From Propionibacterium freudenreichii subsp. freudenreichii (GTDB taxonomy: Bacteria > Actinomycetota > Actinomycetes > Propionibacteriales > Propionibacteriaceae), in contig NZ_CP010341.1 in assembly GCF_000940845.1 (NCBI RefSeq), positions 1 through 32,000 on the forward strand: a stretch of DNA of 32,000 nucleotides, written 5' to 3'. Positions 12,300-32,000 of the stretch are shown piece by piece; position 1 is the stretch's first letter; the number at the start of each line of letters is the position of its first letter. The notes under the pieces were generated by a model that was not told the DNA's origin, searched no databases, and saw only the letters and a program-made list of their open reading frames with translations. The translations under genes and the position numbers were made by a program.

Positions 12300-13460
12300 G
12301 TGAAGATCACAGTCGAGCGCGATGTCATGGCGGAGGCTGTTGCCTGGGTGGCACGCAGCCTGCCCAATCGCCCGAGCGTTCCGATCCTTGCCGGCCTGCT
12401 CATGAGGGCCACGGGGAGCCAGCTCGTGCTGTCGAGCTTCGACTATGAGACCAGTGCACGCATCACCATTGACGCGCAGGTCGATGAGGAGGGCGAGGCC
12501 CTCGTCTCGGGGCGCCTGCTGTCAGAGATCGCCCGCAGCCTGCCCAATCGTCCGGCCCGCTTCACCGCCAACTCCAACCACGTGGAACTGGTGTGTGGCT
12601 CGGCCCGCTTCACCCTGCAGATGCTGCCGGTGGAGGACTACCCGCAGCTGCCCGAGATGCCCGCCGAGAGCGGCACCGTCCCCAGCGACGAGTTCACCCG
12701 TTCCGTGGCCCAGGTGGTGGTGGCCGCCGGTCGCGACGAGCTGCTGCCCGTGTTCACCGGCGTGCGCATCGAGATCAACGACGATCGCCTCTCGCTGCTG
12801 GCCACCGACCGCTACCGCATGGCGTTGAAGGAACTCACCTGGAATCCGGCCACCACGCAGGCCGAGAGCGCCGCCCTGGTGCCCGCCCGCGTGCTGTCGG
12901 AATCGGCCCGTTCCATGGGTGGTGGCGAGGCCGTTGCCCTGGCATTGTCCAATGGCATCGAGGGCGAGGGGCTCATCGGATTGTCCGGCGAGGGCGCCGG
13001 CGGACGCCGCGAACTCACCACCCGGCTGCTCGACGGCGAATTCCCCAAAGTGCGCCACCTGATGGACATCAAGCCCAATGTCACCGTGCGCGTGAAGACC
13101 GAGGAGGTGCTCGAGTCGGTCAAGCGCGTCTCCCTGGTCGCCGAGCGCAACACCTCGGTGCGCATGGTCATCGAGGACGACCGCATCGCACTCGACGCCG
13201 CCACCGGCGACCAGGCGCAGGCCACCGAGGCCATTGAGGCCCAGGTGAACAATGTGGCCGGCGGCGAGATGGCCGTATCGGCCGTGGGGTTCAACCCCCG
13301 CTACCTGACCGATGCGCTCTCGGCGCTTGATACGCCCTATGTGCAGTTCTCGTTCACGGCCCCCGGCAAGCCCTGCCTGGTGCAGGGACTGCCCGACGTC
13401 GATGGCGAGCCCGAGGCCGACTACAAGCATGTGATCATGCTGATGCGCCTGCCCGGCTGA
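12300..13460 (+). CDS. dnaN: DNA polymerase III beta sliding clamp
   Basis: 386 aa with a typical DnaN N-terminus (MKITVERDVMAEAVAWVARSLP.RPSVPILAGLLM...LVLSSFDYETSARI) and three-domain length. GTG 12300 is preceded by GGAGCGAGGAA. Position is upstream of recF. Confidence 0.92.
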   Translation: MKITVERDVMAEAVAWVARSLPNRPSVPILAGLLMRATGSQLVLSSFDYETSARITIDAQVDEEGEALVSGRLLSEIARSLPNRPARFTANSNHVELVCGSARFTLQMLPVEDYPQLPEMPAESGTVPSDEFTRSVAQVVVAAGRDELLPVFTGVRIEINDDRLSLLATDRYRMALKELTWNPATTQAESAALVPARVLSESARSMGGGEAVALALSNGIEGEGLIGLSGEGAGGRRELTTRLLDGEFPKVRHLMDIKPNVTVRVKTEEVLESVKRVSLVAERNTSVRMVIEDDRIALDAATGDQAQATEAIEAQVNNVAGGEMAVSAVGFNPRYLTDALSALDTPYVQFSFTAPGKPCLVQGLPDVDGEPEADYKHVIMLMRLPG

Positions 13461-13533
13461 CCGATCGACCGCGGAGCGGGGCTGGCCTAGGCTGGCACCG
13501 TCGCATTGATGTCGTTCGGGAGGGGTGCAGCCG

Positions 13534-14835
13534 ATGTTCGTCGAGCACCTCGAGCTGAAGGACTTTCGTTCCTACGAGGCCGCCAAGCTCGATATCGGCC
13601 CGGGTGTGTCGGTGTTCGTGGGGCCCAACGGCCACGGCAAGACCAACCTGGTGGAGGCCGTCGAATACCTGTCGACGCTGTCGAGCCACCGGGTGTCGGC
13701 CGATGCGCCATTGATCCGCGCCGGCACCAGCCAGGCGATCGTCAGGGCGCTGGTGGTGGCGGGTCGCGACGACCCCCGCAAGCTGCTGCTGGAGCTCGAG
13801 ATCAACGCCGGACGCGCCAACCATGCGCGCATCAACCGGGCGCCGGTGCGGCGGATGCGCGATTTCATCGGGGCGCTGCGCACGGTGGTGTTCAGCCCCG
13901 AGGACCTGGCGATGGTGAAGGGCGATCCCACCGACCGGCGTGCCTTCCTCGATGCCCTGGTGATCACCCGGTGGCCGCGGCTGGCCGGCGTGAAATCTGA
14001 CTACGACCGGGTGCTGCGGCAACGTAATACCCTGCTGAAGACGCTGGCGCGACGCTCGTCGCGCGTCGATGGGGGCGACGTGGCCACCCTCGACGTGTGG
14101 AACGAGCGGCTGGCCCAGTTCGGCGCTGAGCTGTTGGCGGCGCGGCTGGCAACCCTGTCCGACCTGATGCCCTATGCGCGGGCGAGCTATGCGGCGATCG
14201 CGCCGGTGAACAACCGGGTGGACGCCCGCTACAAGTCGTCGTTGGGTGGGCTGTCCGAGCTGCTGGGCTATGCCACCGACGGTGCACCCGGTGAGCTTCC
14301 GGAGGCCGCGGACACCGACGACGAAGTGCGCACCCCGGCGCCCGGGCCCGACCAGCTGGCGGTGCTCATGATGGACGCCATGGCTGCGCGGCGCGGCGAC
14401 GAACTCGCCCGCGGCGTCACCCTGGTGGGTCCCCACCGCGATGATGTGACCCTGACGATCGGCACCCTGCCGGCGAAGGGCTATGCCAGCCACGGTGAGA
14501 GCTGGTCGCTCGCCCTGGCGCTGCGGTTGGGATCACTCGACATGCTGCGCGCCGACGACGTGGAGCCGGTGCTGGTGCTCGACGATGTGTTCGCCGAGCT
14601 CGACGTGACGCGACGTGATCGCCTTGCCGACGCCGTCGCGAAGGCCGAGCAGGTGCTGGTGACTGCCGCGGTCGGCTCCGACGTGCCCGGGCAGCTGAAT
14701 GGGCAGCGCTTCGACGTCGACCTGCGCGGATCGGCGCACGCCGGGCATGAGGAGAGCGCCACCGGGCCGCGTGTTTCGATCGTGTCCCCAGCCTTGTCCA
14801 CAGGCTCTGTCCACAGGTCTGTGGACAATGACTGA
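13534..14835 (+). CDS. recF: DNA replication/repair protein RecF (with about 45-aa C-terminal read-through tail)
   Basis: MFVEHLELKDFRSYE, Walker A GPNGHGKTNL, signature-like HGESWSLALALRLGS, Walker B LVLDDVFAELD. ATG 13534 lies 8 nt after GGGAGGGG. The last ~45 codons (…RGSAHAGHEESATGPRVSIVSPALSTGSVHRSVDND) lie beyond the conserved RecF end and run through the DnaA-box trio. Confidence 0.9.
   Translation: MFVEHLELKDFRSYEAAKLDIGPGVSVFVGPNGHGKTNLVEAVEYLSTLSSHRVSADAPLIRAGTSQAIVRALVVAGRDDPRKLLLELEINAGRANHARINRAPVRRMRDFIGALRTVVFSPEDLAMVKGDPTDRRAFLDALVITRWPRLAGVKSDYDRVLRQRNTLLKTLARRSSRVDGGDVATLDVWNERLAQFGAELLAARLATLSDLMPYARASYAAIAPVNNRVDARYKSSLGGLSELLGYATDGAPGELPEAADTDDEVRTPAPGPDQLAVLMMDAMAARRGDELARGVTLVGPHRDDVTLTIGTLPAKGYASHGESWSLALALRLGSLDMLRADDVEPVLVLDDVFAELDVTRRDRLADAVAKAEQVLVTAAVGSDVPGQLNGQRFDVDLRGSAHAGHEESATGPRVSIVSPALSTGSVHRSVDND
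14794..14828. promoter_or_regulatory. Three DnaA boxes at 13-bp spacing overlapping the recF stop and dciA start
   Basis: TTGTCCACA 14794-14802 (9/9 to the actinobacterial consensus). CTGTCCACA 14807-14815 (8/9). TGTGGACAA 14820-14828 (inverted, 9/9). The last base of box 3 is the A of the dciA ATG. Confidence 0.65.
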
Positions 14836-15663: not shown

Positions 15664-17176
15664 CCCGACGGGCCGGCTCTGGCAAGGGGATTCGTGGCGA
15701 ATCCGGCCGCCCCACGGTCACCACGGTGGGCGCATGTGACCACGATGTGAAAGTCGGGGACAGGGTCTTCACAGGAACCTATGAGTTCCAGTAATCTGCA
15801 CTACAGGACGACCGGGTGCCGTTCAGCCCTTGTTTCAACCCCACCTCAAGGAGCACTGCCCCATGAAGACTCGTGTTCGCTCCCGCAAGCCGGCCGCTGG
15901 CCTTGCCGGGATAGCCCTTTTCGCCAGCGGCCTCAGCCTCATGTCAACCGTCGCATCCCGTGCCGATTCCGGGCTGCCCAGTGGAGTCCACGAGGGGGTG
16001 TGCATCCCGAAGGACGGTGCTGGATCGTTCAACATCATCAACAATGACGACCAGATGAGTCGAACGAAGTACACCGACAGCTACGACAACATCTACCGAT
16101 GCATTACTCCCCCAGCAGCCCAGGCAGCTGGGCTGACCTATTCATCACCGATGAAGTCATTCCTGCATGCGGCCGGATTTACGTCAACCGATGTCTCTGA
16201 CAAGTCAATTCTTGCCCAGGATGATCAGTGGAAGGGCTATACAAATGGCGCAGATGGTACGCCGCTGACGAATTCCTACGGGGCCCCTTTGAACTCGATG
16301 ATCGCCGCTTATGATCGTGATGGATCCGTTACCACGAAAATTGACGGAAATCCGAGCAAGTACGGTCAGGATCTGCCGATTCCGGGCTACTGGGATACGC
16401 AAGTGGGAACGGCATCAAGTGGTAACTGGTGGATTCCAAACAACGGCCCGACCGGAACCGGCGGGGTCGTGGCAGGGTCGTATCTCTGGAACCAGCGAGT
16501 AGCTGCTGGAACACTCGGCCAGCAGGACGACGGCACGCCTTTTGAGGAGATACAGAAGGGTAATCCGGCACTGAAGCGAGATTGGAACACGATACATTGG
16601 AACACAATCCAATTCAATTTCAATCCATCGAACACACCCGCGTTCACATTTATTGATTATTTAGGCTTTCGTGACCTGAATAATCTGCCTCCGATTGACG
16701 TAACTCAGCGGGACATCAATGCAAATGTGACGCTCAAACTCTCGACCATGTATGAGGGATATCCTGGAACATCCTTCCCGGCGCGTCCAGAGAGTGACTT
16801 CGCGGCCGGAAAACTCAAGACAGTTCAGCGAACGCACGAGAACGATCCTGACGTGATACCTGCAGATGACGTGTCGGAACCCTCCACCCCAGGTGTGAGC
16901 ACTCCGTCACCGCAGCCTTCTTCGCCGCAGCCGTCGTCTCCTGCGACGGGTGGTGATGGTGGTGGTACCACGGTGCCGCCGGCGGGTGATTGCTTCGTGG
17001 ATGTGCATGCGGGTGATCAGTTCGCGGATGATATTTGCTGGGCGAAGTCCCAGGGGATCACCACGGGTTGGCCTGATGGTACGTATCGTCCGGTGACGCC
17101 GATCAATCGTGATGCGTTGATTGCCTATATCTATCGTTTGGCTGGTTCTCCGGCGTTTACGCCGTCGGGTCAGACG

Positions 17177-18282
17177 GCGATGTCAAGGCGTCGAAGCAAC
17201 ATGGGGCTCGCCGGCGAGCAGTCGAGCGAATGCCTCGGTGGGCGTGAGATAGCCCAGTCGGCGGCGGGGTCGATTGTTGATCTCCTCGGCGATGGTGGTG
17301 AGGTAGGGCTGGTGATCGGGGATCACCGTGCCCTTGGGCAGATACTCCCGGTAGAGCCGGTTCGTGTTCTCGTTGCTGGGCCTCTGCCAGGGCGAGTGGG
17401 GATCGGCGAAGTAGACCGGCATCGCCGTGGCCAGGGAGACCTTCGCGTGCTGGGCCATCTCGCTGCCCTGGTCCCACGCCAACGATGCCTTCATCATCTC
17501 GGGCAAGTCGTTGAAAAACTCGATGACCGCGTCAGCGGTTGGCTCGGCGTGTTTCGAGGACAGGGCCAGCAGCCCGGTGAACCCGCTCATCCGCTCCACC
17601 AGCGTCGCCGCGCACGAGGTGCCGTTCTTCCCGATGATCAGGTCACCCTCCCAGTGCCCCGGCACCCGACGCTGGGCGGCGTCCTCACCTCGCTCCGCGA
17701 TCGGGACCATACCTACGATTGGGCCACCGCGCGTCCGCCCGGTCGTACGTGGTCGGCGCTTGGTCCGCTTGGACTGCAGGAAGATGCCCTTGCGGGCGAG
17801 CTCACCCTTCGGGATTGCGTAGATGTACTGGTAGATAGCCTCACCGGAGACGGTTCGGCCGCGTGCGTCAGCAGAGTTCGCCATGCGTTCAACGGTCGGG
17901 TCTGTCGCCTCCAGACGCAACCGGCCCGCTATCTCGTTCGGCGTCCACGACGCGGCCAGATCCGCCTCCACCCTCGCCTGCAGCACCGGATCCCCCGCGA
18001 CCTTCCGCTGCTGCGGGCGAGCCCGCCGACGCTGCGCTCTGACGTCTGCGGTCACGGCCTGGTAGCCGCGGGTCTTCGTCGAGTTCCGGTGAAGCTCCCG
18101 CAAGATCACCGACGGGCAACGCCCCAGGTGACGGGCGATCCTCCGCACCGACCAGCCCGCTTTCGAGGCCGTCGAGATCTCCGACCTGTCACTGAACGAC
18201 AACCCCACCCGCGCCATCCGCACACTCCACCGATCAGACCCCCGCCGACCGGGAGTGTTGCTTCGACGCTATGACACCACCG
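17177..18282 (-). mobile_element. IS30-family insertion sequence (about 1.1 kb)
   Basis: Imperfect terminal inverted repeats: TGTCAAGGCGTCGAAGCAACA (17181-17201) versus the rc of 18256-18276, TGTCATAGCGTCGAAGCAACA (19/21). The flanking direct repeat (G)ACG at 17173/4-17176 and 18282/3-18285 fits a 3-4 bp target duplication. The outermost 4-6 bp of the ends are uncertain. Confidence 0.8.
17183..18217 (-). CDS. IS30-family DDE transposase
   Basis: N-terminal HTH (GWSVRRIARHLGRCPSVILRELHRN). Catalytic core motifs HWEGDLI, WDQGSEM, PWQRPSNENTNRLYREYLPKG, NNRPRRRLGYLTPTEAF. ATG 18217 (GGTGGAG 7 nt upstream) is preferred over the ORF-track GTG 18223. The stop lies inside the left IR. Confidence 0.9.
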   Translation of the reverse strand: MARVGLSFSDRSEISTASKAGWSVRRIARHLGRCPSVILRELHRNSTKTRGYQAVTADVRAQRRRARPQQRKVAGDPVLQARVEADLAASWTPNEIAGRLRLEATDPTVERMANSADARGRTVSGEAIYQYIYAIPKGELARKGIFLQSKRTKRRPRTTGRTRGGPIVGMVPIAERGEDAAQRRVPGHWEGDLIIGKNGTSCAATLVERMSGFTGLLALSSKHAEPTADAVIEFFNDLPEMMKASLAWDQGSEMAQHAKVSLATAMPVYFADPHSPWQRPSNENTNRLYREYLPKGTVIPDHQPYLTTIAEEINNRPRRRLGYLTPTEAFARLLAGEPHVASTP

Positions 18283-18661
18283 ACGTTCTCGGATGTGGCC
18301 CCGTCGAATCAGTTCTACAAGGAGATCGAGTGGGCCGCGAGCACCGCTATCACCACTGGTTGGCCTGATGGCACGTTCCGTCCGACGACTCCGGTGGCGC
18401 GTGATGCGATGGCTGCTTTCTTGTATCGGCGTGCCGGGTCTCCTGCTTTCCTGGCTCCTGGTGTTCCGTCGTTCACTGATGTGGGTGCGGGGAACATGTT
18501 CTATCAGCAGATCGAGTGGATGAAGTCGACTGGTGTGTCCACGGGTTGGGTTGATGGGACGTATCGTCCATTGGACGCTACGAACCGTGACGCGATGGCA
18601 GCATTCCTGCACCGCTACAGCAACATCGGGAAGTAACCACCCGAACAAACAAACCAGCTGA

Positions 18662-18704
18662 GGGCTTGTGGGCGCGGCATTGAATCGTCGCCCCGCAAGC
18701 CCTT
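18662..18704 (+). terminator. Hairpin downstream of the SLH gene
   Basis: AGGGCTTGTGGG (18662-18673) pairs with CCCGCAAGCCCT (18693-18704), 12 bp including one G-U. Starts 26 nt after the stop and is followed by TTACTG (weak U tract). Confidence 0.45.
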
Positions 18705-18878
18705 ACTGCGAGCCCTGATGTTTCGCGAACCAGGCCGATGCCCACCCACGTGGCATTGGCCACCTCATTGGCGGGAATGGCCCTGATCGTCCGACAAGGA
18801 CCGCGCCATCTACCGCCGCCTTGTGCCCCCGGGATGGACCTGTTGGGCAATGACAGTGCAATCAGAAGGGATGTGGCG

Positions 18879-19901
18879 ATGGCCAGCGAAGGTGAATGGG
18901 CCAGGTGGCGTGGCGACATGAGGAGTTCCGCGCGCGGCGTGGAGAATTCGGCCGCGAACATTGAGCAATCGTCGGCGCGGGCCGCGGCGGCATCCGACCG
19001 GACCGCCGAGAACTCGGCCCGCACCGCCAGGGCGTCAGAGGACACGGCGCGTTCGGCGCGTTCGGCGCGCAGTGCGGCCACCGCTTCATGGGTCAGCGCT
19101 GGATTCGCCGCCGTCTCGGCCATCCAGAACGCACGTGCCGCCCGGGCAGCCGAGGAACAGACCGCCATCACGCAGTCGATGGCCGCACAGGAACAGACCC
19201 ACCAGTTCGCCATGTGGCGCCAGACCGAGGAGGGCAAGCAGTACGTGGCGTGGCGCAACCAGGCCATTCCGCTGGCGCAACTGCTGCGCGATCGCCAGAC
19301 GCAGTGGCAGCTGGCGTGGGCCCAGGCCATCGGCAACGCCCAGGACTCGGTGTCCGCCCAGGAACTGGAACACATGAAGCCCCACACCGTCCAGGTGCGG
19401 TCGGGGCGACTTAAGATCGCCGCAGTGATCCTGTTCATCCTGGGAGGCTTCGGCCTCATAACCACCCTGGCCGGTGCGTCCATGACGCGCGTCACCGTCC
19501 TGGGTGTGGCTGGTCCGCTGCTGCTCGCGCTACTCATGCTCGCGGTGGCGGTCTACCTCACCGTGAACGGCAAGCGCCGCCGCCAGGAGGAACAGACGGG
19601 CATCACCTGGATGAACACCGAGCTGAGGAGCATCGTGGCCGCCGAGGCGGCCCAGCGCGTCGCGCGCTTCGGCTTCGACCCGCTGGCGGTGCCGCAGGGC
19701 TACACCGGCTTCGCGTGGGGCGCCACCTTCGACCCGAGCGCCTATGCCGACCAGCTCATGTGGATGATCATCAATGGGCCGGTGAACTTCCCCGAGCCCG
19801 ATGAGTTGCCGGCGCTGGTGATGCCCGACGTGTTGGCTCCCAACCCCGCCTTCCGGCCGGAGGTGAATGCTGCGCTGGCCGACTTCCAGCAGCAGTCCTG
19901 A
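18879..19901 (+). CDS. Hypothetical membrane protein (Ala/Ser/Arg-rich helical N-domain, 2 TM helices, about 110-aa C-domain)
   Basis: ATG 18879 is preceded by GAAGGG (8 nt). TM segments LKIAAVILFILGGFGLITTLAGA and VLGVAGPLLLALLMLAVAVYLTV. No family recognised. Confidence 0.55.
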   Translation: MASEGEWARWRGDMRSSARGVENSAANIEQSSARAAAASDRTAENSARTARASEDTARSARSARSAATASWVSAGFAAVSAIQNARAARAAEEQTAITQSMAAQEQTHQFAMWRQTEEGKQYVAWRNQAIPLAQLLRDRQTQWQLAWAQAIGNAQDSVSAQELEHMKPHTVQVRSGRLKIAAVILFILGGFGLITTLAGASMTRVTVLGVAGPLLLALLMLAVAVYLTVNGKRRRQEEQTGITWMNTELRSIVAAEAAQRVARFGFDPLAVPQGYTGFAWGATFDPSAYADQLMWMIINGPVNFPEPDELPALVMPDVLAPNPAFRPEVNAALADFQQQS

Positions 19902-20306: not shown

Positions 20307-22364
<2,058 letters not shown>

Positions 22365-22410: not shown

Positions 22411-25146
<2,736 letters not shown>

Positions 25147-25173
25147 TTGCCGGGCAACTGGCATTAGCGGGAG

Positions 25174-25209
25174 TCTCCCGCAACCGGCATGAGCGCTGGT
25201 TGCGGGAGA
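25174..25209 (+). terminator. Hairpin downstream of gyrA
   Basis: TCTCCCGCAACC (25174-25185) pairs with GGTTGCGGGAGA (25198-25209). 12-nt loop, followed by TTCCTGCGTTC. Two smaller hairpins precede it (GTTGC-CGG-GCAAC; GCGGGAG-T-CTCCCGC). Confidence 0.5.
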
Positions 25210-25367
25210 TTCCTGCGTTCGGGGCTTGATCGGCGAACCACCGCGTCCACATGGCGGAAATATTCCCCACCGGCTTGAACTGCGGCCGGTCATGCGAGAA
25301 GGTAAGGCTAACCTAACTAGCTGATCCCACCAGTTGGTTTGACCTGTTCGCAGAGAGGCTGCCGACG

Positions 25368-26252
25368 TTGTCACCTTCCTCAAGCAACTCGCATGACCTG
25401 GAGCCCACCGTCTCCGACCAGTCACTGTCGGTTGCCCGACGACTCATGCGCGGCCAGGGCCGTGCATCAATGCTTGCCTACCGCATGGACCCCGCACAGT
25501 CCGTGCAATCGATGGCCCATGGCGTCGACGCCAAGGGCCGCTTCCTCGTGTCGTGGATCGGCAATGCCTGCTGCCCGGTCCCCGAATCGGCCGAGGTGAA
25601 TCCTGTGCGCACCGGGGGCCAGCCCGAGCCGGTGCCGGTGCGCCTGGAGATCCTGCGTCAATCACCTGATCCGATGACGCGGATCGCTGCAGCGAGCCTC
25701 CACCTGCTCGGCTCGCTGTATGTCTTGAGCGACGATGAGCGCATCGACCTGCTCGCCGAGCGCGCACTGCCCACCATGGTGGGCGACGTGGCCGGCATGC
25801 GCGGCGCCCATGTGGGCGTCCTCGTCTCCGACCGCGTGCTGCTGCACGATTGCTACGGCGTCACGCCGCTGTCCTTCGATGCGTTGGTCGGCGAATCCGC
25901 CGACGCGGCCCCGGTGTTCCCCACCATGGCCGACGACCTGGAGGCCTTCGAATGCGTGGCCTGCCTGGCGGAGCCGACGCTGCGCCGCGTCTGCGATTCG
26001 GTGATGTGCGGGCTGCTGCGCGGCCGCGTGCATTCCACCAAGGCCGTGGTCAATCCCTGCCCCGCCGTGGCCGACAAGGTGTTCTGCGTGGACGTTGACC
26101 AGACCGGCATCCTGTTCATGCGGGTGCTCAACGGCCGCGCCACCTCCGTGGTGGCCGACTTCTCACGCAATGTGCATTCACTCGAGGGCCTGGACGCCGA
26201 AGTGTCCGCCCTGGTCGAGAGCTCGACGCTGGTTGACGATTACTGCGTCTGA
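25368..26252 (+). CDS. Hypothetical Cys-rich cytoplasmic protein (10 Cys)
   Basis: ORF with normal high-GC codon appearance. Cys clusters CCPVP, ECVACLAEPTLRRVCDSVMCG, NPCPAVADKVFC. No family recognised. Start uncertain: TTG 25368 per the ORF track, or ATG 25446. Confidence 0.55.
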   Translation: MSPSSSNSHDLEPTVSDQSLSVARRLMRGQGRASMLAYRMDPAQSVQSMAHGVDAKGRFLVSWIGNACCPVPESAEVNPVRTGGQPEPVPVRLEILRQSPDPMTRIAAASLHLLGSLYVLSDDERIDLLAERALPTMVGDVAGMRGAHVGVLVSDRVLLHDCYGVTPLSFDALVGESADAAPVFPTMADDLEAFECVACLAEPTLRRVCDSVMCGLLRGRVHSTKAVVNPCPAVADKVFCVDVDQTGILFMRVLNGRATSVVADFSRNVHSLEGLDAEVSALVESSTLVDDYCV

Positions 26253-26273
26253 CAAGGCCGGCGTCGGGAGTGG

Positions 26274-26298
26274 GCGGGCCCGGGACAACCGGGCCCGC
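26274..26298 (+). terminator. GC-rich hairpin after the Cys-rich hypothetical gene
   Basis: GCGGGCCCGG (26274-26283), loop GACAA, CCGGGCCCGC (26289-26298). Followed by ACGCTTCATT. Confidence 0.5.
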
Positions 26299-26329
26299 AC
26301 GCTTCATTGCACCGTCGCCGGAACATGAA

Positions 26330-26370
26330 CAGGCGGGCCACCGCACATGGGGATGTTGGTGGCCCGCCTG
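26330..26370 (-). terminator. Hairpin just downstream of the DUF1540 gene (minus strand)
   Basis: CAGGCGGGCCACC (26330-26342) pairs with GGTGGCCCGCCTG (26358-26370). 15-nt loop. On the minus strand it is followed by TTCATGTTCC. Lies 12 nt from the stop at 26383. Confidence 0.55.
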
Positions 26371-26382
26371 CAAGTTGTGGAA

Positions 26383-26658
26383 CTACTTGGCCTGGTAGGC
26401 GAGGCAATCAGCCTGCGAGCCACCGACCTCGATGGAGCTTGCGGTGCACATGAGGTCCTTGTTGTGCGTGCACTCGAGACGCTGGCAGGCACCGACCTTG
26501 CCATTGGCCGACGACAGGCCGCCGCGGGCGTCGAGTTCGATGAAGGTGCGGCAGGTGGGCTTCGCGTCGCTGCCACCGATGGTGACGGCGAATGCGGTGC
26601 AGCCGTTGTGGTTGAAGGCGCAGGCCGAGGTGGAACAGGACTTGATGGCGGTTTCCAT
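26383..26658 (-). CDS. Small Cys-rich protein with two DUF1540-like repeats (91 aa, 8 Cys)
   Basis: Two copies of the C-x(4)-C-x-(F/H)N-x(3,4)-C-TA pattern (KSCSTSACAFNHNGCTAFAVTIGG; VGACQRLECTHNKDLMCTASSIEVGG). ATG 26658 is preceded by AGGGAGA. The ORF-track start 26694 adds 12 aa without an SD. Confidence 0.7.
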   Translation of the reverse strand: METAIKSCSTSACAFNHNGCTAFAVTIGGSDAKPTCRTFIELDARGGLSSANGKVGACQRLECTHNKDLMCTASSIEVGGSQADCLAYQAK

Positions 26659-26699
26659 GATGATTCTCCCTTTGTTCGTGACCACGTCTGACAATTACC

Positions 26700-26728
26700 A
26701 ATGTAAGTGCGCATACCGCCCCTGACAA
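26700..26728 (-). promoter_or_regulatory. Candidate sigma-70-type promoter of the DUF1540 gene
   Basis: On the minus strand: TTGTCA (26728-26723) - 17 nt - TACATT (26705-26700). A second ATTGTCAG copy (rc of 26688-26695) falls at about +1 to +10. Confidence 0.45.
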
Positions 26729-26898
26729 TCAAGGTCATCCTAAGAAATAGGGCCGGGAAAGGTTAGGTTCACCTACATTCTGAGTATTCACACGGCGTGC
26801 ACGGCCCATTCCTGAGAAATTCATGTCACCAGGGTTTCTCCCCGCGTTTTCCCGGCTGGCCTACCCTTGGGGTGGAGCACTTCTTAGGGGTGGCGCAT

Positions 26899-27696
26899 AT
26901 GGTGACCAGGCCGACAGCAGTGGCCGGCAGCTTCTATCCGGGCCAGCGGGGGCGGCTCGCCCGCGAGCTGAACACGCTCTTCGAGCAGGCGGATCGTCCA
27001 CCGGCGCAGGTGAGCCCGGCCAGGGTGAAGGCGATCGTGGTGCCGCACGCCGGCTATGTCTACTCGGGCACCACGGCCGCAACCGGCTACGAACTGCTGC
27101 GGGGACGCCCCATCAACCGCGTGGTGGTGCTGGGGCCCACGCACCGGGTGGGGATCCGCGGCATGGCGCTTGCCGGTGCCGACGCCTTCGACACGCCGCT
27201 GGGCTCCGTGCCGGTCGATCCCGACCTCACCGCCATCGCCGAGGCGGTGCCGTTGGTGGTGACGCGTCCCGATGTGCACGCCCGGGAACACAGCCTGGAG
27301 GTGCAGCTGCCGTTCATCAGGACGGTACTGCCGCAGGCCAGCGTGCTTCCGGTGGCCGTGGGCGACGCGCTGCCCGACGAGGTGGCCGCGCTGCTGGACG
27401 CGGTGTGGGGCGAGTCCGACACCGCAATCGTCATCAGCTCCGACCTGTCGCACTACCACTCCTATGACGACGCCCGGAAGCTTGATGCCGGCACCATCGA
27501 CAAGGTGCTGGCGCTGGACGACACCGTGGCGCCCAACCGGGCCTGCGGTTGCTTCTCGTTGAACGGGCTGCTGCTCGCCAGCGGGGAACACCATCTGACG
27601 CCCACCCTGCTTTCCGCCCGCAATTCCGGGGATACCGCCGGCGACAAGGGACGCGTCGTGGGATATGCGTCCTTTGCATTCCAGGCGGACCAGTGA
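26899..27696 (+). CDS. AmmeMemoRadiSam system protein B (MEMO1-family)
   Basis: VAGSFYPG, VVPHAGYVYSG, LGPTHR, REHSLEVQLPF, ISSDLSHYH, ACG. ATG 26899 is preceded by AGGGGTGG. The ORF-track start 26797 is unconserved. Confidence 0.85.
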   Translation: MVTRPTAVAGSFYPGQRGRLARELNTLFEQADRPPAQVSPARVKAIVVPHAGYVYSGTTAATGYELLRGRPINRVVVLGPTHRVGIRGMALAGADAFDTPLGSVPVDPDLTAIAEAVPLVVTRPDVHAREHSLEVQLPFIRTVLPQASVLPVAVGDALPDEVAALLDAVWGESDTAIVISSDLSHYHSYDDARKLDAGTIDKVLALDDTVAPNRACGCFSLNGLLLASGEHHLTPTLLSARNSGDTAGDKGRVVGYASFAFQADQ

Positions 27697-27760
27697 TGTC
27701 GCACCGCGACAATCCCGTAGCCCAACAACACCGCATAACCACACAGTGAGGAGCCAGATC

Positions 27761-28333
27761 ATGAATGACATCCCCGCGGGTGCCCGCGAGACCCTCATCG
27801 ACATGGCGCGCGGAGCCATCGAGCGCCAGTTCGGCATGACCGTGCACCACCGCGAGCAGGCAACCGGCGAGCTGGCGAAGTGGTTGGCGCGTCCGGGCGC
27901 GTCGTTCGTCACGCTGACCCTCGACGGGCGGCTGCGCGGCTGCATCGGCACCCTGGAGGCCTATCGGCCGCTGGGCCAGGACGTGCGCGACAATGCGGTG
28001 CTCGCCGCCTTCCACGACCGGCGCTTCACCCCGCTGCGGGTTGCCGAATACCCCGGACTGCACGTTGAGGTGTCGGTGTTGTCGGCGCCCGAGCCGATGG
28101 AGGTGACCAGCGAGGCGGACGCGATCCGCCAGCTGCGTCCCGGCGTCGACGGGGTGGTGCTCACCGAGGGTTCCCACCGGGCCACCTACCTGCCCCAGGT
28201 GTGGGACCAGCTGCCCGACCCGCATGAATTTCTGTCCACGCTGCGCGAGAAGGCCGGCCTGGCCCCCGATCGGTGGGGGCCGGACACCCGGCTGGCGCGC
28301 TACGCCGTCACCGCCTTCGAGGACACCCGATGA
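27761..28333 (+). CDS. AmmeMemoRadiSam system protein A (AMMECR1 domain)
   Basis: GASFVTL...GRLRGCIGTLEAYRPL..DV..NA..AAF.D.RF.PL, VEVSVLS.PE, G.HRATYLPQVW. ATG 27761 after GTGAGGAG. Confidence 0.85.
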   Translation: MNDIPAGARETLIDMARGAIERQFGMTVHHREQATGELAKWLARPGASFVTLTLDGRLRGCIGTLEAYRPLGQDVRDNAVLAAFHDRRFTPLRVAEYPGLHVEVSVLSAPEPMEVTSEADAIRQLRPGVDGVVLTEGSHRATYLPQVWDQLPDPHEFLSTLREKAGLAPDRWGPDTRLARYAVTAFEDTR

Positions 28334-29418
28334 CGACCTCGCCCACCCGACGGGACCCCGCGGGCACGGACAGGGCCGTCCACGACACCGATGGGCTGCC
28401 CGGACGCACCGCCCGCTGGTGGCATGCGCTGCCCGACGGACGGCTGCGCTGTGAGCTGTGCCCGCGCGAATGCACCCTGCGCGACGGCCAACGCGGCTTC
28501 TGCTTCGTGCGCGCCCGCCACGGCGACGAGATCCGCCTGGACACCTACGGGCACTGCTCGGGCCTGGCGGTCGACCCCATCGAGAAGAAGCCGCTCAACC
28601 ACGTGCTGCCCGGGTCGCGGGTGCTCAGCTTCGGCACCGCCGGCTGCGACCTGGCCTGCCGCTTCTGCCAGAACTGGGAGATCTCCACGGCCCGGTCGAT
28701 GACCGCGGTGGGCGTGCCGGCCATGCCCCGCGACATCGCCCACGACGCGTCGGCACGCGGCTGCAGCGCCGTGGCCTTCACCTACAACGATCCGGTGGTG
28801 TTCGCCGAGTACGCCATGGACACCGCCAGGGCGGTCAACGAGCAGCAGATGCTGTCGATCGCCGTGACGGCCGGATACATCAATCCGGAACCGCGCGACG
28901 AGTTCTTCGCCTGCATGGACGCCGCCAATATCGACCTGAAGGGCTTCACCGAGGGCTTCTACCGGCGTATTACCGGCGGACGCCTCGACGTGGTGCTCGA
29001 CACGATCGATGCCGTGGTGCACAACGGACGCACCTGGGTGGAGCTCACCACCCTGCTGATCCCCGGCATGAACGACTCCGACGAGGAGTTGCGGGCGATG
29101 TGCGGGTGGATCGTGCGCCAGCTCGGCCCCGATGTGCCGCTGCACTTCACGGCGTTCCACCCGTCGAACCGCATGAGGGATGTGCCGCCCACCACCGCCA
29201 CATCGGTGGAGCGGGCCCGCCAGATCGCACTCGATGCCGGCATCCACTTCGTCTACACCGGCAATGTGCACGATCCGGCCGGTCAGACCACCTGGTGCCC
29301 GCAGTGCGGGACGGCGCTCATCGAGCGTGATGGCTACCGGGTGGGGCCGGTGCGCCTGGACGACCTGGGGCGCTGCCGTTCCTGCGGCTACGCGTTGCCC
29401 GGCATCTTCCGGCGCTGA
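28330..29418 (+). CDS. AmmeMemoRadiSam system radical SAM enzyme (PflA-activase-like)
   Basis: N-terminal CELCPRECTLRDGQRGFCFVR. DPIEKKPLNH. Radical-SAM CX3CX2C (CDLACRFC, nt 28645-28668). C-terminal CPQCG...CRSCG zinc-ribbon-like pair. ATG 28330 overlaps the AMMECR1 stop (ATGA). Confidence 0.88.
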   Translation: MTTSPTRRDPAGTDRAVHDTDGLPGRTARWWHALPDGRLRCELCPRECTLRDGQRGFCFVRARHGDEIRLDTYGHCSGLAVDPIEKKPLNHVLPGSRVLSFGTAGCDLACRFCQNWEISTARSMTAVGVPAMPRDIAHDASARGCSAVAFTYNDPVVFAEYAMDTARAVNEQQMLSIAVTAGYINPEPRDEFFACMDAANIDLKGFTEGFYRRITGGRLDVVLDTIDAVVHNGRTWVELTTLLIPGMNDSDEELRAMCGWIVRQLGPDVPLHFTAFHPSNRMRDVPPTTATSVERARQIALDAGIHFVYTGNVHDPAGQTTWCPQCGTALIERDGYRVGPVRLDDLGRCRSCGYALPGIFRR

Positions 29419-29574
29419 CGGGGCACCGGGTGGGCGCTGGACGCACCGGCGATCCCTGCCGCGGCGACGCGGTGCGCATGCGGTGGCCGCGCCCGGTAGT
29501 CTGAACACGCCCGAAACCGTCGGTGTGGCCCAGCAGGGTGGTCGCGTTGCCGACATGCACGCAGGAGGGTCTGG

Positions 29575-30093
29575 ATGGCTGACAATTCCGATGCCACAAC
29601 CGCGAAGGCGGATGGCGGCTCGCGACGCTTCGCGCGTCCCGGCAGCCGACGCAGGTCGGGGCGCAAGCCGGCGCTGTCCTTCGCCACGCTGAAGGAGAAG
29701 GCCGGGGCCGGACGTCCCGAGGGTCCCACGCGCAAGGCGCAGCTGCGCATCTCGCGGGTCGACCCGTGGTCGGTGATGAAGACCTCATTCCTGTTCTCGG
29801 TGGTCGGCGGCATCGCGTTGATCATTGCGGTGTGGGTGTTGTGGGGCATCATCAGCCTGTCCGGTGGCCTCAACGCCATGCAGCAGGGCATCACGGCCAT
29901 GGTCGGCGCCGATAGTGGCGGCGGGTCCAACCTGGCCAACTATGTGACCATGTGGCGCGTGCTGGGGTTCACCGTGCTGGTGTCGGTGGTGAGCATCGTG
30001 CTGGTCACGGCCATCACCACGCTGTTCAGTTTCGTGTACAACGTGGCCGCCAATGTGATCGGCGGCCTCGAGGTGACACTGGCCGAGGACTGA
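29575..30093 (+). CDS. DUF3566 transmembrane protein (Rv0007-type, conserved after gyrA in Actinobacteria)
   Basis: Basic N-tail, then RKAQLRISRVDPWSVMKTSFLFSVVGGIALIIAVWVLW and a C-terminal TM ending in NVAANVIGGLEVTLAED. AGGAGGG lies 5 nt before ATG 29575. Confidence 0.8.
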   Translation: MADNSDATTAKADGGSRRFARPGSRRRSGRKPALSFATLKEKAGAGRPEGPTRKAQLRISRVDPWSVMKTSFLFSVVGGIALIIAVWVLWGIISLSGGLNAMQQGITAMVGADSGGGSNLANYVTMWRVLGFTVLVSVVSIVLVTAITTLFSFVYNVAANVIGGLEVTLAED

Positions 30094-30166
30094 GTGAGTT
30101 GAGCGTGAGGGACGTCGTGCGATAAAGTCTCTCTTCGGTACGGGGGACAACCTCCCCAGCACCGAT

Positions 30167-30243
30167 GGGCCTATAGCTCAGTTGGTTAGAGCGCGTCCCT
30201 GATAAGGACGAGGTCACTGGTTCAAGTCCAGTTAGGCCCACCA
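30167..30243 (+). tRNA. tRNA-Ile (anticodon GAT), CCA encoded
   Basis: Folded by hand. Acceptor GGGCCTA/TAGGCCC. D-stem GCTC/GAGC. Anticodon stem CGTCC/GGACG with loop CTGATAA. T-stem ACTGG/CCAGT with loop TTCAAGT. Discriminator A plus CCA. Confidence 0.93.
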
Positions 30244-30621
30244 AAGAATGTGCCTCTGACAAGCTTCGATGCTCTGAGCCCTCTCGACAGGGTACGAATC
30301 GGGTACGAATTCCCGTCGGTCCTCGCGTACGCGCGCGTGTGAGAGCGGGCCCGCCCACGCGCTCACCGGCGTGGCTCTCGCACGGCCTACACATAGCCCT
30401 GACACCGCGAATCATGGGTGACAACTGATACCCCCCTGGGGTATCAGTTCCGTGGGGAATGCCGCTATGTCTGGTCGGGTCGAGGGATACAGTCCAGACT
30501 TTCCCCCCATGTTTTGTGGAAAGGGTGCCCATACAGGGCATGCAGGGTGATTGGGGTTGGGCGACCGGAAACCGCGTTCTCCCGGGTCCAGGATCACCGA
30601 CCCTACGACTACACCACCCAT

Positions 30622-30668
30622 GGGCTGCAAGTCCGGGAGATCTGCGACGGTGGGCCTCTAATCATGAC
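30622..30668. repeat. Copy A of a 47-bp direct repeat (34-bp core 31/34 identical to copy B)
   Basis: GGGCTGCAAGTCCGGGAGATCTGCGACGGTGGGCCTCTAATCATGAC. Lies 63 bp beyond the stop of the 226-aa gene. In the copy-B reading frame it carries TAG where copy B has TGG. Confidence 0.75.
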
Positions 30669-30730
30669 TGGAGCACAGCAGCGCCCCGGGTAGTTCGCGG
30701 TGAACCACTCGGGGCGGTGATGTTGGTCGG

Positions 30731-31411
30731 TCAGACGGCCACGTCCGCAGACGTGAGCTGTTGCCTCTGACCGAACGGCTGGACATTTGTCACCGGCAGC
30801 GCGTCGGCATCGTCCAGCTCGCGGAACAGATCGGGGTCGCCGTCGGCCAGGCCCAGGAGGTCCTGGGAATCCAGCTCCCCGCCCAACGCGATCTTGTGCG
30901 CAGCCCGGGCCACACCTGCCTCCTGCTGTGCCGTCGCGAGTTGGCTGGCCAGGGCGCCGTAGAGTTCCTGGTTCTCGGGCAGCGCCGGGTACGCCCGGAC
31001 CACGGCCTCGGGGATGTACGCGGCCTCGTCCTCGGGCAGCTCGTGGGCGCCGATCGTGGCCAGGGTCTCCAGCTCGTGGGCGGAGGCGGACGGGGCGATT
31101 GTGTCGACGTTCGCCGTCCCGGCTGCGATACGTGCCGAAAGCCGCTGCCAGGTCAACTCTCGGGCGATGACGGTCTGGGGATCGGACGACGGCGCCAGGT
31201 CCTTGGCGAACTGATCGTTGAGAGCCTGCTGAGCCTTCTCTTCCCGGGCCAGCGCCACCTTCACCTCCGAGATGACCCATTCGCGGGTTGGCGCGATCTG
31301 CTTCTCTCGGTACTCGGCCAGGCCGCTCGCTGACAGGCTCGGGTTGGTGTAGGCATCGGCGGCCTTCTTGTCTGCCATGAACTTGCGGAATGCATCGGTG
31401 ATGCTAGACAT
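30731..31411 (-). CDS. Hypothetical protein (226 aa, acidic and helical), probable mobile-element or phage cargo
   Basis: AAGGAAG lies 6 nt upstream of ATG 31411. Co-oriented 44 nt downstream of the FDXHR-like gene. No family recognised. Confidence 0.55.
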   Translation of the reverse strand: MSSITDAFRKFMADKKAADAYTNPSLSASGLAEYREKQIAPTREWVISEVKVALAREEKAQQALNDQFAKDLAPSSDPQTVIARELTWQRLSARIAAGTANVDTIAPSASAHELETLATIGAHELPEDEAAYIPEAVVRAYPALPENQELYGALASQLATAQQEAGVARAAHKIALGGELDSQDLLGLADGDPDLFRELDDADALPVTNVQPFGQRQQLTSADVAV

Positions 31412-31455
31412 GATGGACTTCCTTTCGAGGAGCTATCTGATGGTTGGGGGTGTAG

Positions 31456-31740
31456 TTATGCGGGATCGGGCTGCGCGGCTGGGAGATCTGCGACGGTGGG
31501 CCTCCAATCGTCACTTCCGGGCCAGTGCCATACGCCCTTGGCATTCCGCACGAGGCCCTTGGCGGCTATCTCGTCGGGTGTGAGGCAGCGGCGCGGTATG
31601 TAGGGGCGCTGCGGGTCGTGGTGGTCGTAGTAGTCACCAACCCGGTGCAGGTCCCCCGCCGATGTGCCCGAGAACAGCTCGTTGCAGACGGGGCAGAGCT
31701 CTGTCTTGAAGCCAGGGATTGCGGGGCGCTTCGCGCTCAT
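31456..31740 (-). CDS. Small CxxC ... DxHR zinc-binding-type protein resembling the actinophage-associated FDXHR family (94 aa)
   Basis: MSAKRPAIPGFKTELCPVCNELFSGTSAGDLHRVGDYYDHHDPQRPYIPRRCLTPDEI. ATG 31740 is preceded by GGGAGGGG. The motif is GDLHR rather than FDxHR, so the family assignment is tentative. Confidence 0.5.
   Translation of the reverse strand: MSAKRPAIPGFKTELCPVCNELFSGTSAGDLHRVGDYYDHHDPQRPYIPRRCLTPDEIAAKGLVRNAKGVWHWPGSDDWRPTVADLPAAQPDPA
31468..31514. repeat. Copy B of the 47-bp direct repeat (inside the 3' end of the FDXHR-like gene)
   Basis: GGGCTGCGCGGCTGGGAGATCTGCGACGGTGGGCCTCCAATCGTCAC. On the minus strand it encodes ...DDWRPTVADLPAAQP. Confidence 0.75.
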
Positions 31741-31785
31741 GCTGGATTCCCCTCCCGAGCCAGGGGGGCATCCAATCGGAGGGCA

Positions 31786-31930
31786 GAACATACCGGCGTT
31801 TTCTTGGCCCCCGGTATGTTCCGCCGGATCTACCGATGAAGAACCTACCTCGAACCCCCCTAAAGGGGTACGTTCGGTAGGTTTCTTCGAACCTACCGAG
31901 CCGGTATGTTCCGGTATGTTCCGGTACCTT
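31786..31930. repeat. Dense repeat/operator-like array upstream of the FDXHR-like gene
   Basis: The CCGGTATGTT(C) motif occurs inverted at 31786-31796 and direct at 31811-31821, which together form an 11-bp perfect IR with a 14-nt spacer. It also occurs as tandem 10-mers at 31901-31910 and 31911-31920, with a degenerate third copy at 31921-31930. A long imperfect hairpin spans 31838-31888 (GAAGAACCTACC...CCCCT-AA-AGGGG...GGTAGGTTTCTTC). Confidence 0.7.
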
Positions 31931-32000
31931 CTGGAAGGGCACCTCATTTCGCTCCTCCTGGCTCGGTATTTTCGGCCAGCTTGTAGTAGAACCCGCCACC

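Follow-up and report, generated by a model that had tools for sequence, protein, structure and literature searches.

Two apparently unrelated modules, an AmmeMemoRadiSam cassette and an iron-box gene pair, lie between gyrA and cofA in Propionibacterium freudenreichii

We analysed a 32,000-nucleotide stretch of Propionibacterium freudenreichii subsp. freudenreichii (contig NZ_CP010341.1, positions 1 to 32,000, assembly GCF_000940845.1; hereafter the window, whose coordinates are used throughout), in which about 4.4 kb separate gyrA from the gene for the membrane protein DUF3566/CofA. This interval holds an AmmeMemoRadiSam cassette, made up of genes for a Memo-like protein, an AMMECR1-like protein and a radical SAM enzyme (rSAM), and beside it the genes for a 91-amino-acid DUF1540 protein and a 294-amino-acid protein (p294). 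The explanation that fits best, and that we consider likely, is that two unrelated modules are neighbours in the gyrA–cofA interval: the cassette, and a DUF1540–p294 pair with iron boxes. The pair is conserved, with its genes convergent, in Actinomycetaceae, Micrococcaceae, Propionibacteriaceae, Dermatophilaceae and relatives; it is apparently independent of the cassette, and the adjacency of the two is apparently a lineage-specific juxtaposition. A first-pass annotation of this DNA had instead proposed that the cassette enzymes have DUF1540 or p294 as their substrate or partner. The genome-neighbourhood comparison that it suggested was carried out, and co-occurrence was essentially absent.

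Results

The DUF1540–p294 pair is conserved without the cassette

Co-occurrence was measured at the level of the gene neighbourhood and in two directions. In the first, one genome per species was scanned with an alignment of DUF1540 orthologues, which gave 80 loci with 10-kb flanks from Actinomyces, Kocuria, Propionicimonas, Tessaracoccus, Arachnia, Micropruina, Nesterenkonia, Serinicoccus, Dermatophilaceae, Arcanobacterium and one Corynebacterium metagenome-assembled genome (MAG); these loci were searched for the proteins of the window by tblastn and with hidden Markov models (HMMs). In the second, cassette loci (80 metagenomic loci with close rSAM homologues and 7 genomic loci, 813 kb) were searched with HMMs with the filters off.

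All 80 DUF1540 loci contained a p294 homologue by HMM. The two genes were adjacent and convergent in 75-76 loci, in 75 of them with a gap of less than 1 kb. The spacer has a median length of 118 nucleotides in the other species, and the 3' ends of the two genes overlap in 14 loci. These overlaps, read from projected coordinates (L006, L008, L011, L021, L047, L050 and others, at ~10250-10285), would allow transcriptional interference or antisense coupling. The cassette was found in one of the 80 DUF1540 loci (L050, a Propionicimonas MAG), and gyrA, gyrB and DUF3566 in none. Conversely, neither DUF1540 nor p294 was detected by HMM in any of the 87 cassette loci, with the same models scoring 80/80 in the positive-control set. 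When all open reading frames (ORFs) of the 80 DUF1540 loci were clustered, no other gene family proved to be conserved around the pair. Recurrent genes around the pair or the cassettes were limited to generic ABC ATPases and lineage-specific neighbours, including thiL/pgpA/ribBA-type synteny, and no recurrent small Cys-rich ORF was found beside cassettes elsewhere. The closest named cassettes lie among unrelated genes, in 'Propionibacterium sp.' (L161-163, with an rSAM 68% identical to that of the window), in a Propionibacteriaceae genome (L164/165) and in Ancrocorticia (L166/167).

The two modules also differ in breadth. The search for DUF1540 orthologues returned 192 clusters and 164 genomic matches, all from a few actinobacterial families, whereas the rSAM family is very large: at about 60% identity it has more than 8000 candidates, with labels of Pseudomonadota and of Actinomycetota among them. 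That the cassette ranges far outside the taxa with DUF1540 argues against the neighbouring protein as its substrate. The small size and Cys content of DUF1540, together with its adjacency to the cassette in the window, in a close relative (L168) and, phylogenetically independently, in L050, might still suggest a maturase/substrate layout in which DUF1540 or p294 is a substrate or obligate partner of AmmeMemoRadiSam. With counts of 1/80 and 0/87 in the two directions, the closest cassettes lacking the pair nearby, a cassette family so much broader than DUF1540, an rSAM devoid of SPASM/RRE-type domains (see below) and genes that are divergent in the window, we regard that proposal as very improbable; in L050, a hairpin and a separate boxed promoter intervene between the modules.

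The cassette is a canonical, self-contained operon

The Memo, AMMECR1 and rSAM genes form, as first annotated, a compact operon of a known system, for which functions have so far been predicted. It is canonical and self-contained, and its proteins score 2-10 times the curated NCBIfam cut-offs: 266.9 bits for Memo with TIGR04336 (cut-off 26; PF01875, 2e-44), 194.5 bits for AMMECR1 with TIGR04335 (cut-off 99; PF01871, 3e-46) and 528.7 bits for the rSAM with TIGR04337 (cut-off 220). Models of PflA and glycyl-radical activases reach only ~47 bits at best on the rSAM, far under their own cut-offs. Pfam searches found no SPASM, twitch, RRE or peptide-recognition domain in it, only Radical_SAM and a sub-threshold Fer4_12 match (21.2 bits versus 22). 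The three genes are co-directional and adjacent, with gaps of 64 and -4 nucleotides, and stand in the commonest order; the ATGA overlap noted earlier is present at 28330-28333, where the rSAM start lies on the AMMECR1 stop. The rSAM translation contains CDLACRFC (GCDLACRFCQNW), a CxxxCxxC motif, and that of AMMECR1 contains LRGCIGT with its Cys; both we take to be functional motifs of their families. Of the 80 metagenomic cassette loci, 62 also have Memo and 67 also have AMMECR1. Since the neighbourhoods differ in every lineage examined, the cassette travels between genomes as a three-gene unit.

A neighbourhood of AMMECR1, rSAM and dioxygenase genes has been predicted to carry out RNA base modification (PMC2034487). 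The Memo-AMMECR1-radical SAM neighbourhood is also that of Balaji & Aravind (2007) and Burroughs et al. (2019). In the working model of the literature, the three proteins would serve one pathway: the rSAM would generate a 5'-deoxyadenosyl radical, which would act on a widely conserved substrate, a small molecule or perhaps an RNA base, that AMMECR1, a protein with a conserved Cys, would hold; the Memo-type enzyme, metal-dependent and dioxygenase-like, would add an oxidative step. Burroughs et al. reportedly widened the prediction in 2019 to the modification of nucleotide bases or isoprenoids.

Several cassettes have additional features. In the Ancrocorticia sp. MAG L166 (8563-9993), Memo and AMMECR1 are fused into a protein of 476 amino acids encoded directly upstream of the rSAM, which supports joint action of the two proteins. 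An alpha/beta-hydrolase of ~250 amino acids, dienelactone-hydrolase-like by eye, is encoded directly downstream of and co-directionally with the rSAM in 13 metagenomic loci (for example L131 4776-5519 and L086 3380-4018), and a phosphoribosyltransferase-like gene recurs near the cassette in nine loci; these genes could be lineage-specific accessories. In a Propionibacteriaceae genome (L164/L165, 7156-11465) the cassette is preceded by genes for the flavin transferase ApbE and a zinc-ribbon thioredoxin and followed by one for an FKBP-type isomerase, all co-directional.

Iron boxes precede both genes of the pair

Candidate operators were scored by the number of matches over 19 positions and with a position weight matrix (PWM) built from the sites upstream of p294; windows of 350 nucleotides served as controls. 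The operator consensus of the iron-dependent regulators IdeR and DtxR is TTAGGTTAGGCTAACCTAA. Only two sites in the 32 kb match at 14 or more positions. The site at 25298-25316, GAAGGTAAGGCTAACCTAA, matches TWAGGTWAGSCTWACCTWA at 18 of 19 positions and has the best PWM score of the window (27.4 bits). The site at 26758-26776, AAAGGTTAGGTTCACCTAC, matches at 15 of 19 and scores second best (17.7 bits), the next score being 8.1. The p294 box is identical in L168, and a box with at least 14 of 19 matches lies upstream of p294 in 75 of the 79 other loci versus 2.7% of control windows (in 77 of 81 regions once the window and L168 are included), 25-110 nucleotides from the start codon across species. 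The consensus of these sites, TGAGGTTAGGCTTACCTTA, reads as essentially the IdeR/DtxR box given above.

The DUF1540 boxes are weaker than those of p294. Scored with the PWM, upstream regions of DUF1540 exceed the 99th percentile of the controls in 61 of 81 loci, and 30 other loci share a fixed layout: a 19-nucleotide box, one base, TTGNNN, 17 nucleotides and TANNNT. The promoter that the first-pass annotation had assigned to DUF1540, TTGTCA-17-TACATT, is the only sigma-70-like match in 25100-30300 (shuffled sequences averaged 0.4) and is conserved in L168, the 89%-identity relative. At the box position of those 30 species, the window has a degenerate sequence (26730-26748) that matches at 12 of 19 positions by hand count and is weak alone; the better box lies 11 nucleotides further upstream, and box-like sequence occupies the same place in L168. 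A box abutting a -35 element would, by its position, be compatible with either repression or activation. Both promoters are apparently iron-regulated through these predicted sites by a regulator of the DtxR/IdeR type. In six papers that mention DUF1540 we did not find it as an iron-regulated gene, and its involvement in an iron-box pair appears undescribed there. The terminator that had also been claimed for DUF1540 is less clear than the promoter: hairpins are present between the convergent genes, but a simple terminator scan gave no call.

The DUF1540 leaders of L013, L019, L037, L063, L064, L070, L075 and L080, which represent several families, share a conserved element, GTCAGATACGCGG, just downstream of the -10 element. 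Its counterpart in the window is GTCAGACGTGG (~26668-26680, minus strand), where Rfam finds nothing. It might serve as a second operator, as the context of a start site or as an RNA element of the leader.

p294 has a predicted HOZ/HugZ-like fold

Neither the p294 of the window nor ten distant members of its family gave a Pfam or NCBIfam match. A word-indexed search retrieved only six relatives, and an exhaustive profile search 185 cluster representatives among 1.84 billion; the family is small and compact. The ten Cys counted in the first-pass annotation are present in the window protein, but being Cys-rich is not a trait of the family, in which only C231 (90%) and C240 (70%) are conserved. 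The other conserved residues are R25, G29, H51, R92, H112, H160, D242 and G247, with R92, H112, D242, H51 and H160 invariant or nearly invariant.

An AlphaFold2 (AF2) model of p294, built from a 5-sequence alignment, had a predicted local distance difference test score (pLDDT) of 66 and a predicted template-modelling score (pTM) of 0.56. Foldseek placed the heme-binding protein MSMEG_6519 at the top (E 3.5e-8), and plant HOZ and the GluTR-binding protein (GBP) were likewise matched over the full length. The top 18 matches (E 3.5e-8 to 7e-5, 274-294 aligned columns) all share a two-domain architecture, a split barrel followed by a DUF2470-type domain. Characterised proteins that bind heme or act in its pathway (HOZ, GBP, MSMEG_6519) make up the majority, and a few are of unknown function; no single-domain flavoenzyme is among these 18 matches with E <= 0.001. 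At the level of sequence, PF10615 (DUF2470) matched weakly in 17 of 42 family members (best 1.8e-4), and profile searches of the PDB with alignments of 42 and 96 sequences gave marginal matches to Dri1/Ssr1698 (Dri1 E 0.2-0.8) and PtHOZ1. The weak profile matches fall on the DUF2470 core, D-x3/4-G...F..P, including the invariant D242 and G247. DUF2470 is the heme-binding DRI ('domain related to iron'); HOZ-like proteins consist of a split barrel followed by DRI (PMC11014987; PMC11602992); in Actinomycetota, DUF2470 genes are co-expressed with siderophore clusters (bioRxiv 10.64898/2026.06.17.732583). We assign to p294, with moderate confidence, a predicted HOZ/HugZ-like fold, and it probably binds heme.

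It is also conceivable that the pair has no part in iron or heme metabolism, with another regulator binding the palindromes and the p294 split barrel holding a non-heme ligand such as flavin or F420. Split barrels do bind flavin mononucleotide and F420, and the lower Foldseek matches include PNPOx-like and F420 enzymes; the lack of significant family matches for p294 and its distant members, the marginal PDB profile matches and the weaker boxes of DUF1540 would agree with this reading. We judge this improbable in view of the consensus derived from the sites themselves, which is essentially the IdeR/DtxR box, the 18 full-length and mostly heme-related Foldseek matches, and the position of the weak sequence matches on the DUF2470 core motif.

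The DUF1540 protein, 99% identical to a P. freudenreichii DUF1540 protein, fits its earlier description as a double-DUF1540 protein with eight Cys. PF07561 matches only the C-terminal repeat, and the double nature rests on an internal repeat, 2 x C-x4-C-x6/7-C-x13/15-C. The eight Cys are invariant or nearly so in sets of 17 and 69 orthologues, and orthologues are 57-78% identical.

An iron/heme function would work as follows. When iron is replete, a DtxR-family repressor would occupy the p294 box, which overlaps or abuts the core promoter of that gene. When iron is limiting, p294 would be made and would bind heme; it would then either degrade heme for its iron or throttle heme synthesis, as reported for Rv3839 of Mycobacterium tuberculosis. 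This DUF2470 protein, which has an IdeR site, is induced in low iron and then lowers heme synthesis, and its loss raises heme and porphyrin (PMC13258150). DUF1540 would be a metal-binding partner, with two Cys4 sites, under the same regulator.

Observations that weigh against this explanation

Three sets of observations weigh against two unrelated modules, one of them concerned with iron and heme. The first is L050, in which the cassette lies directly 5' of DUF1540 and is co-directional with it. A neighbour-joining tree of the rSAM proteins groups the window with L168 and then with L161-163, in which the cassette lies away from the pair, and the L050 rSAM ranks only 40th of 75 by distance from that of the window. 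A single ancestral juxtaposition shared by L050 and the window was considered and is rejected by this tree. Because the L050 rSAM is distant from that of the window, the L050 adjacency is an independent event, in the opposite orientation, and the modules have been juxtaposed twice. By our own very rough estimate, which depends on the share of genomes that carry a cassette, random placement would give one such case among 80 loci with a probability of roughly 0.02-0.08, a weak residual signal. Were neither juxtaposition due to chance, AmmeMemoRadiSam would act on an iron/heme-responsive DUF1540–HOZ-like module in some Propionibacteriales, with the 8-Cys protein or a tetrapyrrole handled by p294 as possible targets of modification. 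We give this only a slim chance; if true, it would open for the first time an experimental route to a substrate of a system that is conserved from archaea to human MEMO1 and AMMECR1. Little weight is placed on L050 because genes turn over at the 5' flank of DUF1540, with upstream neighbours that vary among nine Propionicimonas-like loci, and because the oriC-proximal block of the strain has taken at least one other insertion (see below). As read from the L050 sequence, rSAM and DUF1540 are set apart there by a hairpin, AT-rich spacer DNA and a promoter with a box of its own, and boxes flank only DUF1540 and p294.

The second is the box at 26758-26776, which lies in the spacer that DUF1540 shares with the divergent Memo operon and shares bases with a TACATT of the Memo strand, so that the cassette may be under iron control in the P. 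freudenreichii lineage. The proteins would then not act on each other, but the cassette of this lineage would have been captured by the shared iron box and would be expressed with the iron-limitation regulon. The box is 123 nucleotides upstream of the Memo ATG, the TACATT (26774-26779) is of the TANNNT type, box-like sequence is kept at the same place in L168, and the better box of the window is displaced from the rigid position that it has before DUF1540 in other taxa. However, none of 59 Memo upstream regions of other cassette loci reaches 14 of 19 matches, and the L050 boxes leave the cassette aside. The box can moreover be explained without Memo because cassette-free species also have boxes at a similar distance (81-118 nucleotides) from the DUF1540 start. 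We consider regulatory capture unlikely, with some room for it in this lineage.

The third concerns the protein models. AF2 gave for DUF1540, with 69 sequences, a pLDDT of 33 and no usable fold, and the p294 model is itself only moderately confident (TM ~0.5 to its matches) with marginal profile links to DUF2470.

Genomic context and turnover of the region

The coordinates of all features are collected in Table 1; all genes of the first-pass annotation were recovered at or close to the positions given for them. DUF3566/CofA normally follows gyrase directly and precedes tRNA genes (PMC7205459); the ~4.4 kb between gyrA and DUF3566 in the window, to which the first-pass annotation had drawn attention, are therefore atypical. 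CofA is a cofactor of PBP1a, and its gene lies 'invariably very close to oriC' (PMC4255298). The relative L168, whose p294 is 89% identical, has the same gene order between gyrA and DUF3566. Its stretch from gyrA to the p294 iron box (9166-10000) is ~550 bp longer than in the window, while the box and the sequence immediately upstream are almost the same in L168 as in the window.

Elsewhere the two regions differ. In L168 dciA stands directly before gyrB, where the window carries an insertion (15830-19901) that includes a low-GC stretch (16001-17000, GC 0.545); the oriC-proximal block has therefore received a second insertion specific to the lineage, between dciA and gyrB. The genes downstream of tRNA-Ile in L168 also differ from those of the window (30244-32000), and the window region after the tRNA may be an integrated element. 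An Rfam scan of 25000-30400 found nothing beyond the tRNA.

Table 1. Features of the window, with coordinates, strand and supporting evidence
Feature	Position	Strand	Evidence or remark
dnaN	12300-13460
recF	13525-14835
dciA	14699-15610
Extra segment with SLH-domain ORF	~4.7 kb after dciA
SLH-domain ORF	15830-18274		PF00395, 6e-5
387-aa ORF	18738-19901		no Pfam match
gyrB	20322-22364
gyrA	22411-25146	+	911-aa ORF, obvious GyrA sequence; L168 orthologue matches PF00521/PF03989; left border of the atypical 4.4-kb segment
GC-rich terminator-like hairpin after gyrA	25174-25209	+	TCTCCCGCAACC-N12-GGTTGCGGGAGA, read from the sequence; no call in a simple terminator scan
Iron box of p294, IdeR/DtxR-type (predicted)	25298-25316		GAAGGTAAGGCTAACCTAA, 70 nt upstream of p294
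p294 (294-aa ORF)	25368-26252	+	predicted HOZ/HugZ-like, split beta-barrel then DUF2470/DRI
Convergent spacer p294/DUF1540	26253-26382		two GC-rich hairpins, one facing each gene, read from the sequence
DUF1540 gene	26383-26658	-	91 aa from ATG; PF07561, 33.6 bits versus 22.1
DUF1540 promoter-like TTGTCA-17-TACATT	26700-26728	-
Degenerate iron-box remnant	26730-26748		ATTTCTTAGGATGACCTTG on the minus strand, abuts the DUF1540 -35 element
Second iron box (predicted)	26758-26776		AAAGGTTAGGTTCACCTAC, DUF1540/Memo divergent spacer
Memo-like, AmmeMemoRadiSam system protein B	26899-27696	+	TIGR04336, PF01875
AMMECR1-like, AmmeMemoRadiSam system protein A	27761-28333	+	TIGR04335, PF01871
AmmeMemoRadiSam radical SAM enzyme (rSAM)	28330-29418	+	TIGR04337
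DUF3566/CofA-like membrane protein	29575-30093	+	PF12089, 2.6e-36; right border of the segment
tRNA-Ile (GAT)	30167-30243	+	ARAGORN; Rfam RF00005, 76 bits
226-aa ORF	30731-31411	-	no match
163-aa ORF	31456-31947	-	phage FDXHR zinc-binding domain PF24071, 23.7 bits versus cut-off 27 (sub-threshold)

Discussion

For the AmmeMemoRadiSam question the outcome is mostly negative. The neighbours give no lead to the cassette substrate because they belong to a different, self-sufficient module, and the idea of a substrate next door should not drive experiments. As a by-product, two uncharacterised families, the actinobacterial double-DUF1540 protein and the 185-cluster family that lacks a Pfam model, receive a testable assignment. 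Because both promoters carry IdeR/DtxR-type boxes and p294 has a HOZ/HugZ-like predicted fold, the pair would belong to iron/heme homeostasis, alongside the recently characterised Rv3839.

Compared with AmmeMemoRadiSam systems elsewhere, the proteins of the window show no difference; only their location, in the gyrA–cofA interval and beside an iron-box pair, is unusual. The likeness to pairs of radical SAM maturase and precursor peptide, such as the sactipeptide, streptide and SPASM-type systems for ribosomally synthesized and post-translationally modified peptides (RiPPs), lies in a small Cys-rich ORF beside an rSAM gene. Unlike such pairs, the window has no conserved co-occurrence, its genes are divergent and its rSAM lacks SPASM and RRE domains; and whereas RiPP precursors consist of a leader and a core peptide, DUF1540 is a conserved 91-amino-acid protein of the folded-domain kind.

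The palindromic 19-mers of the window and its relatives match the operators of IdeR/DtxR regulons at 14-18 positions and, like those operators, are placed on or beside core promoter elements, with conservation across ~80 species. The DUF1540 box differs from them in standing upstream of the -35 element at a fixed spacing. With the HOZ-like/HugZ family (MSMEG_6519, 5bnc; At3g03890 HOZ1, 6m0a; PtHOZ1, 9bl1; GluTR-binding protein, 4n7r), p294 shares the predicted domain order and full-length Foldseek matches (E 3.5e-8 to 1e-5, TM 0.46-0.54), but identity is only 12-18% and sequence profiles miss these proteins at significance. The closest functional parallel is with Rv3839 as described in PMC13258150, and rests on the domain type and IdeR control: p294, too, is an actinobacterial protein of ~260-290 amino acids with DUF2470-type similarity and an upstream IdeR-type box, and would be expected to be induced by iron limitation. 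Rv3839, on the other hand, is a DUF2470 protein, a family that p294 fits only marginally in Pfam, and it shares a transcript with Rv3840 (LCP-like), beside bfrB, whereas p294 is paired convergently with DUF1540.

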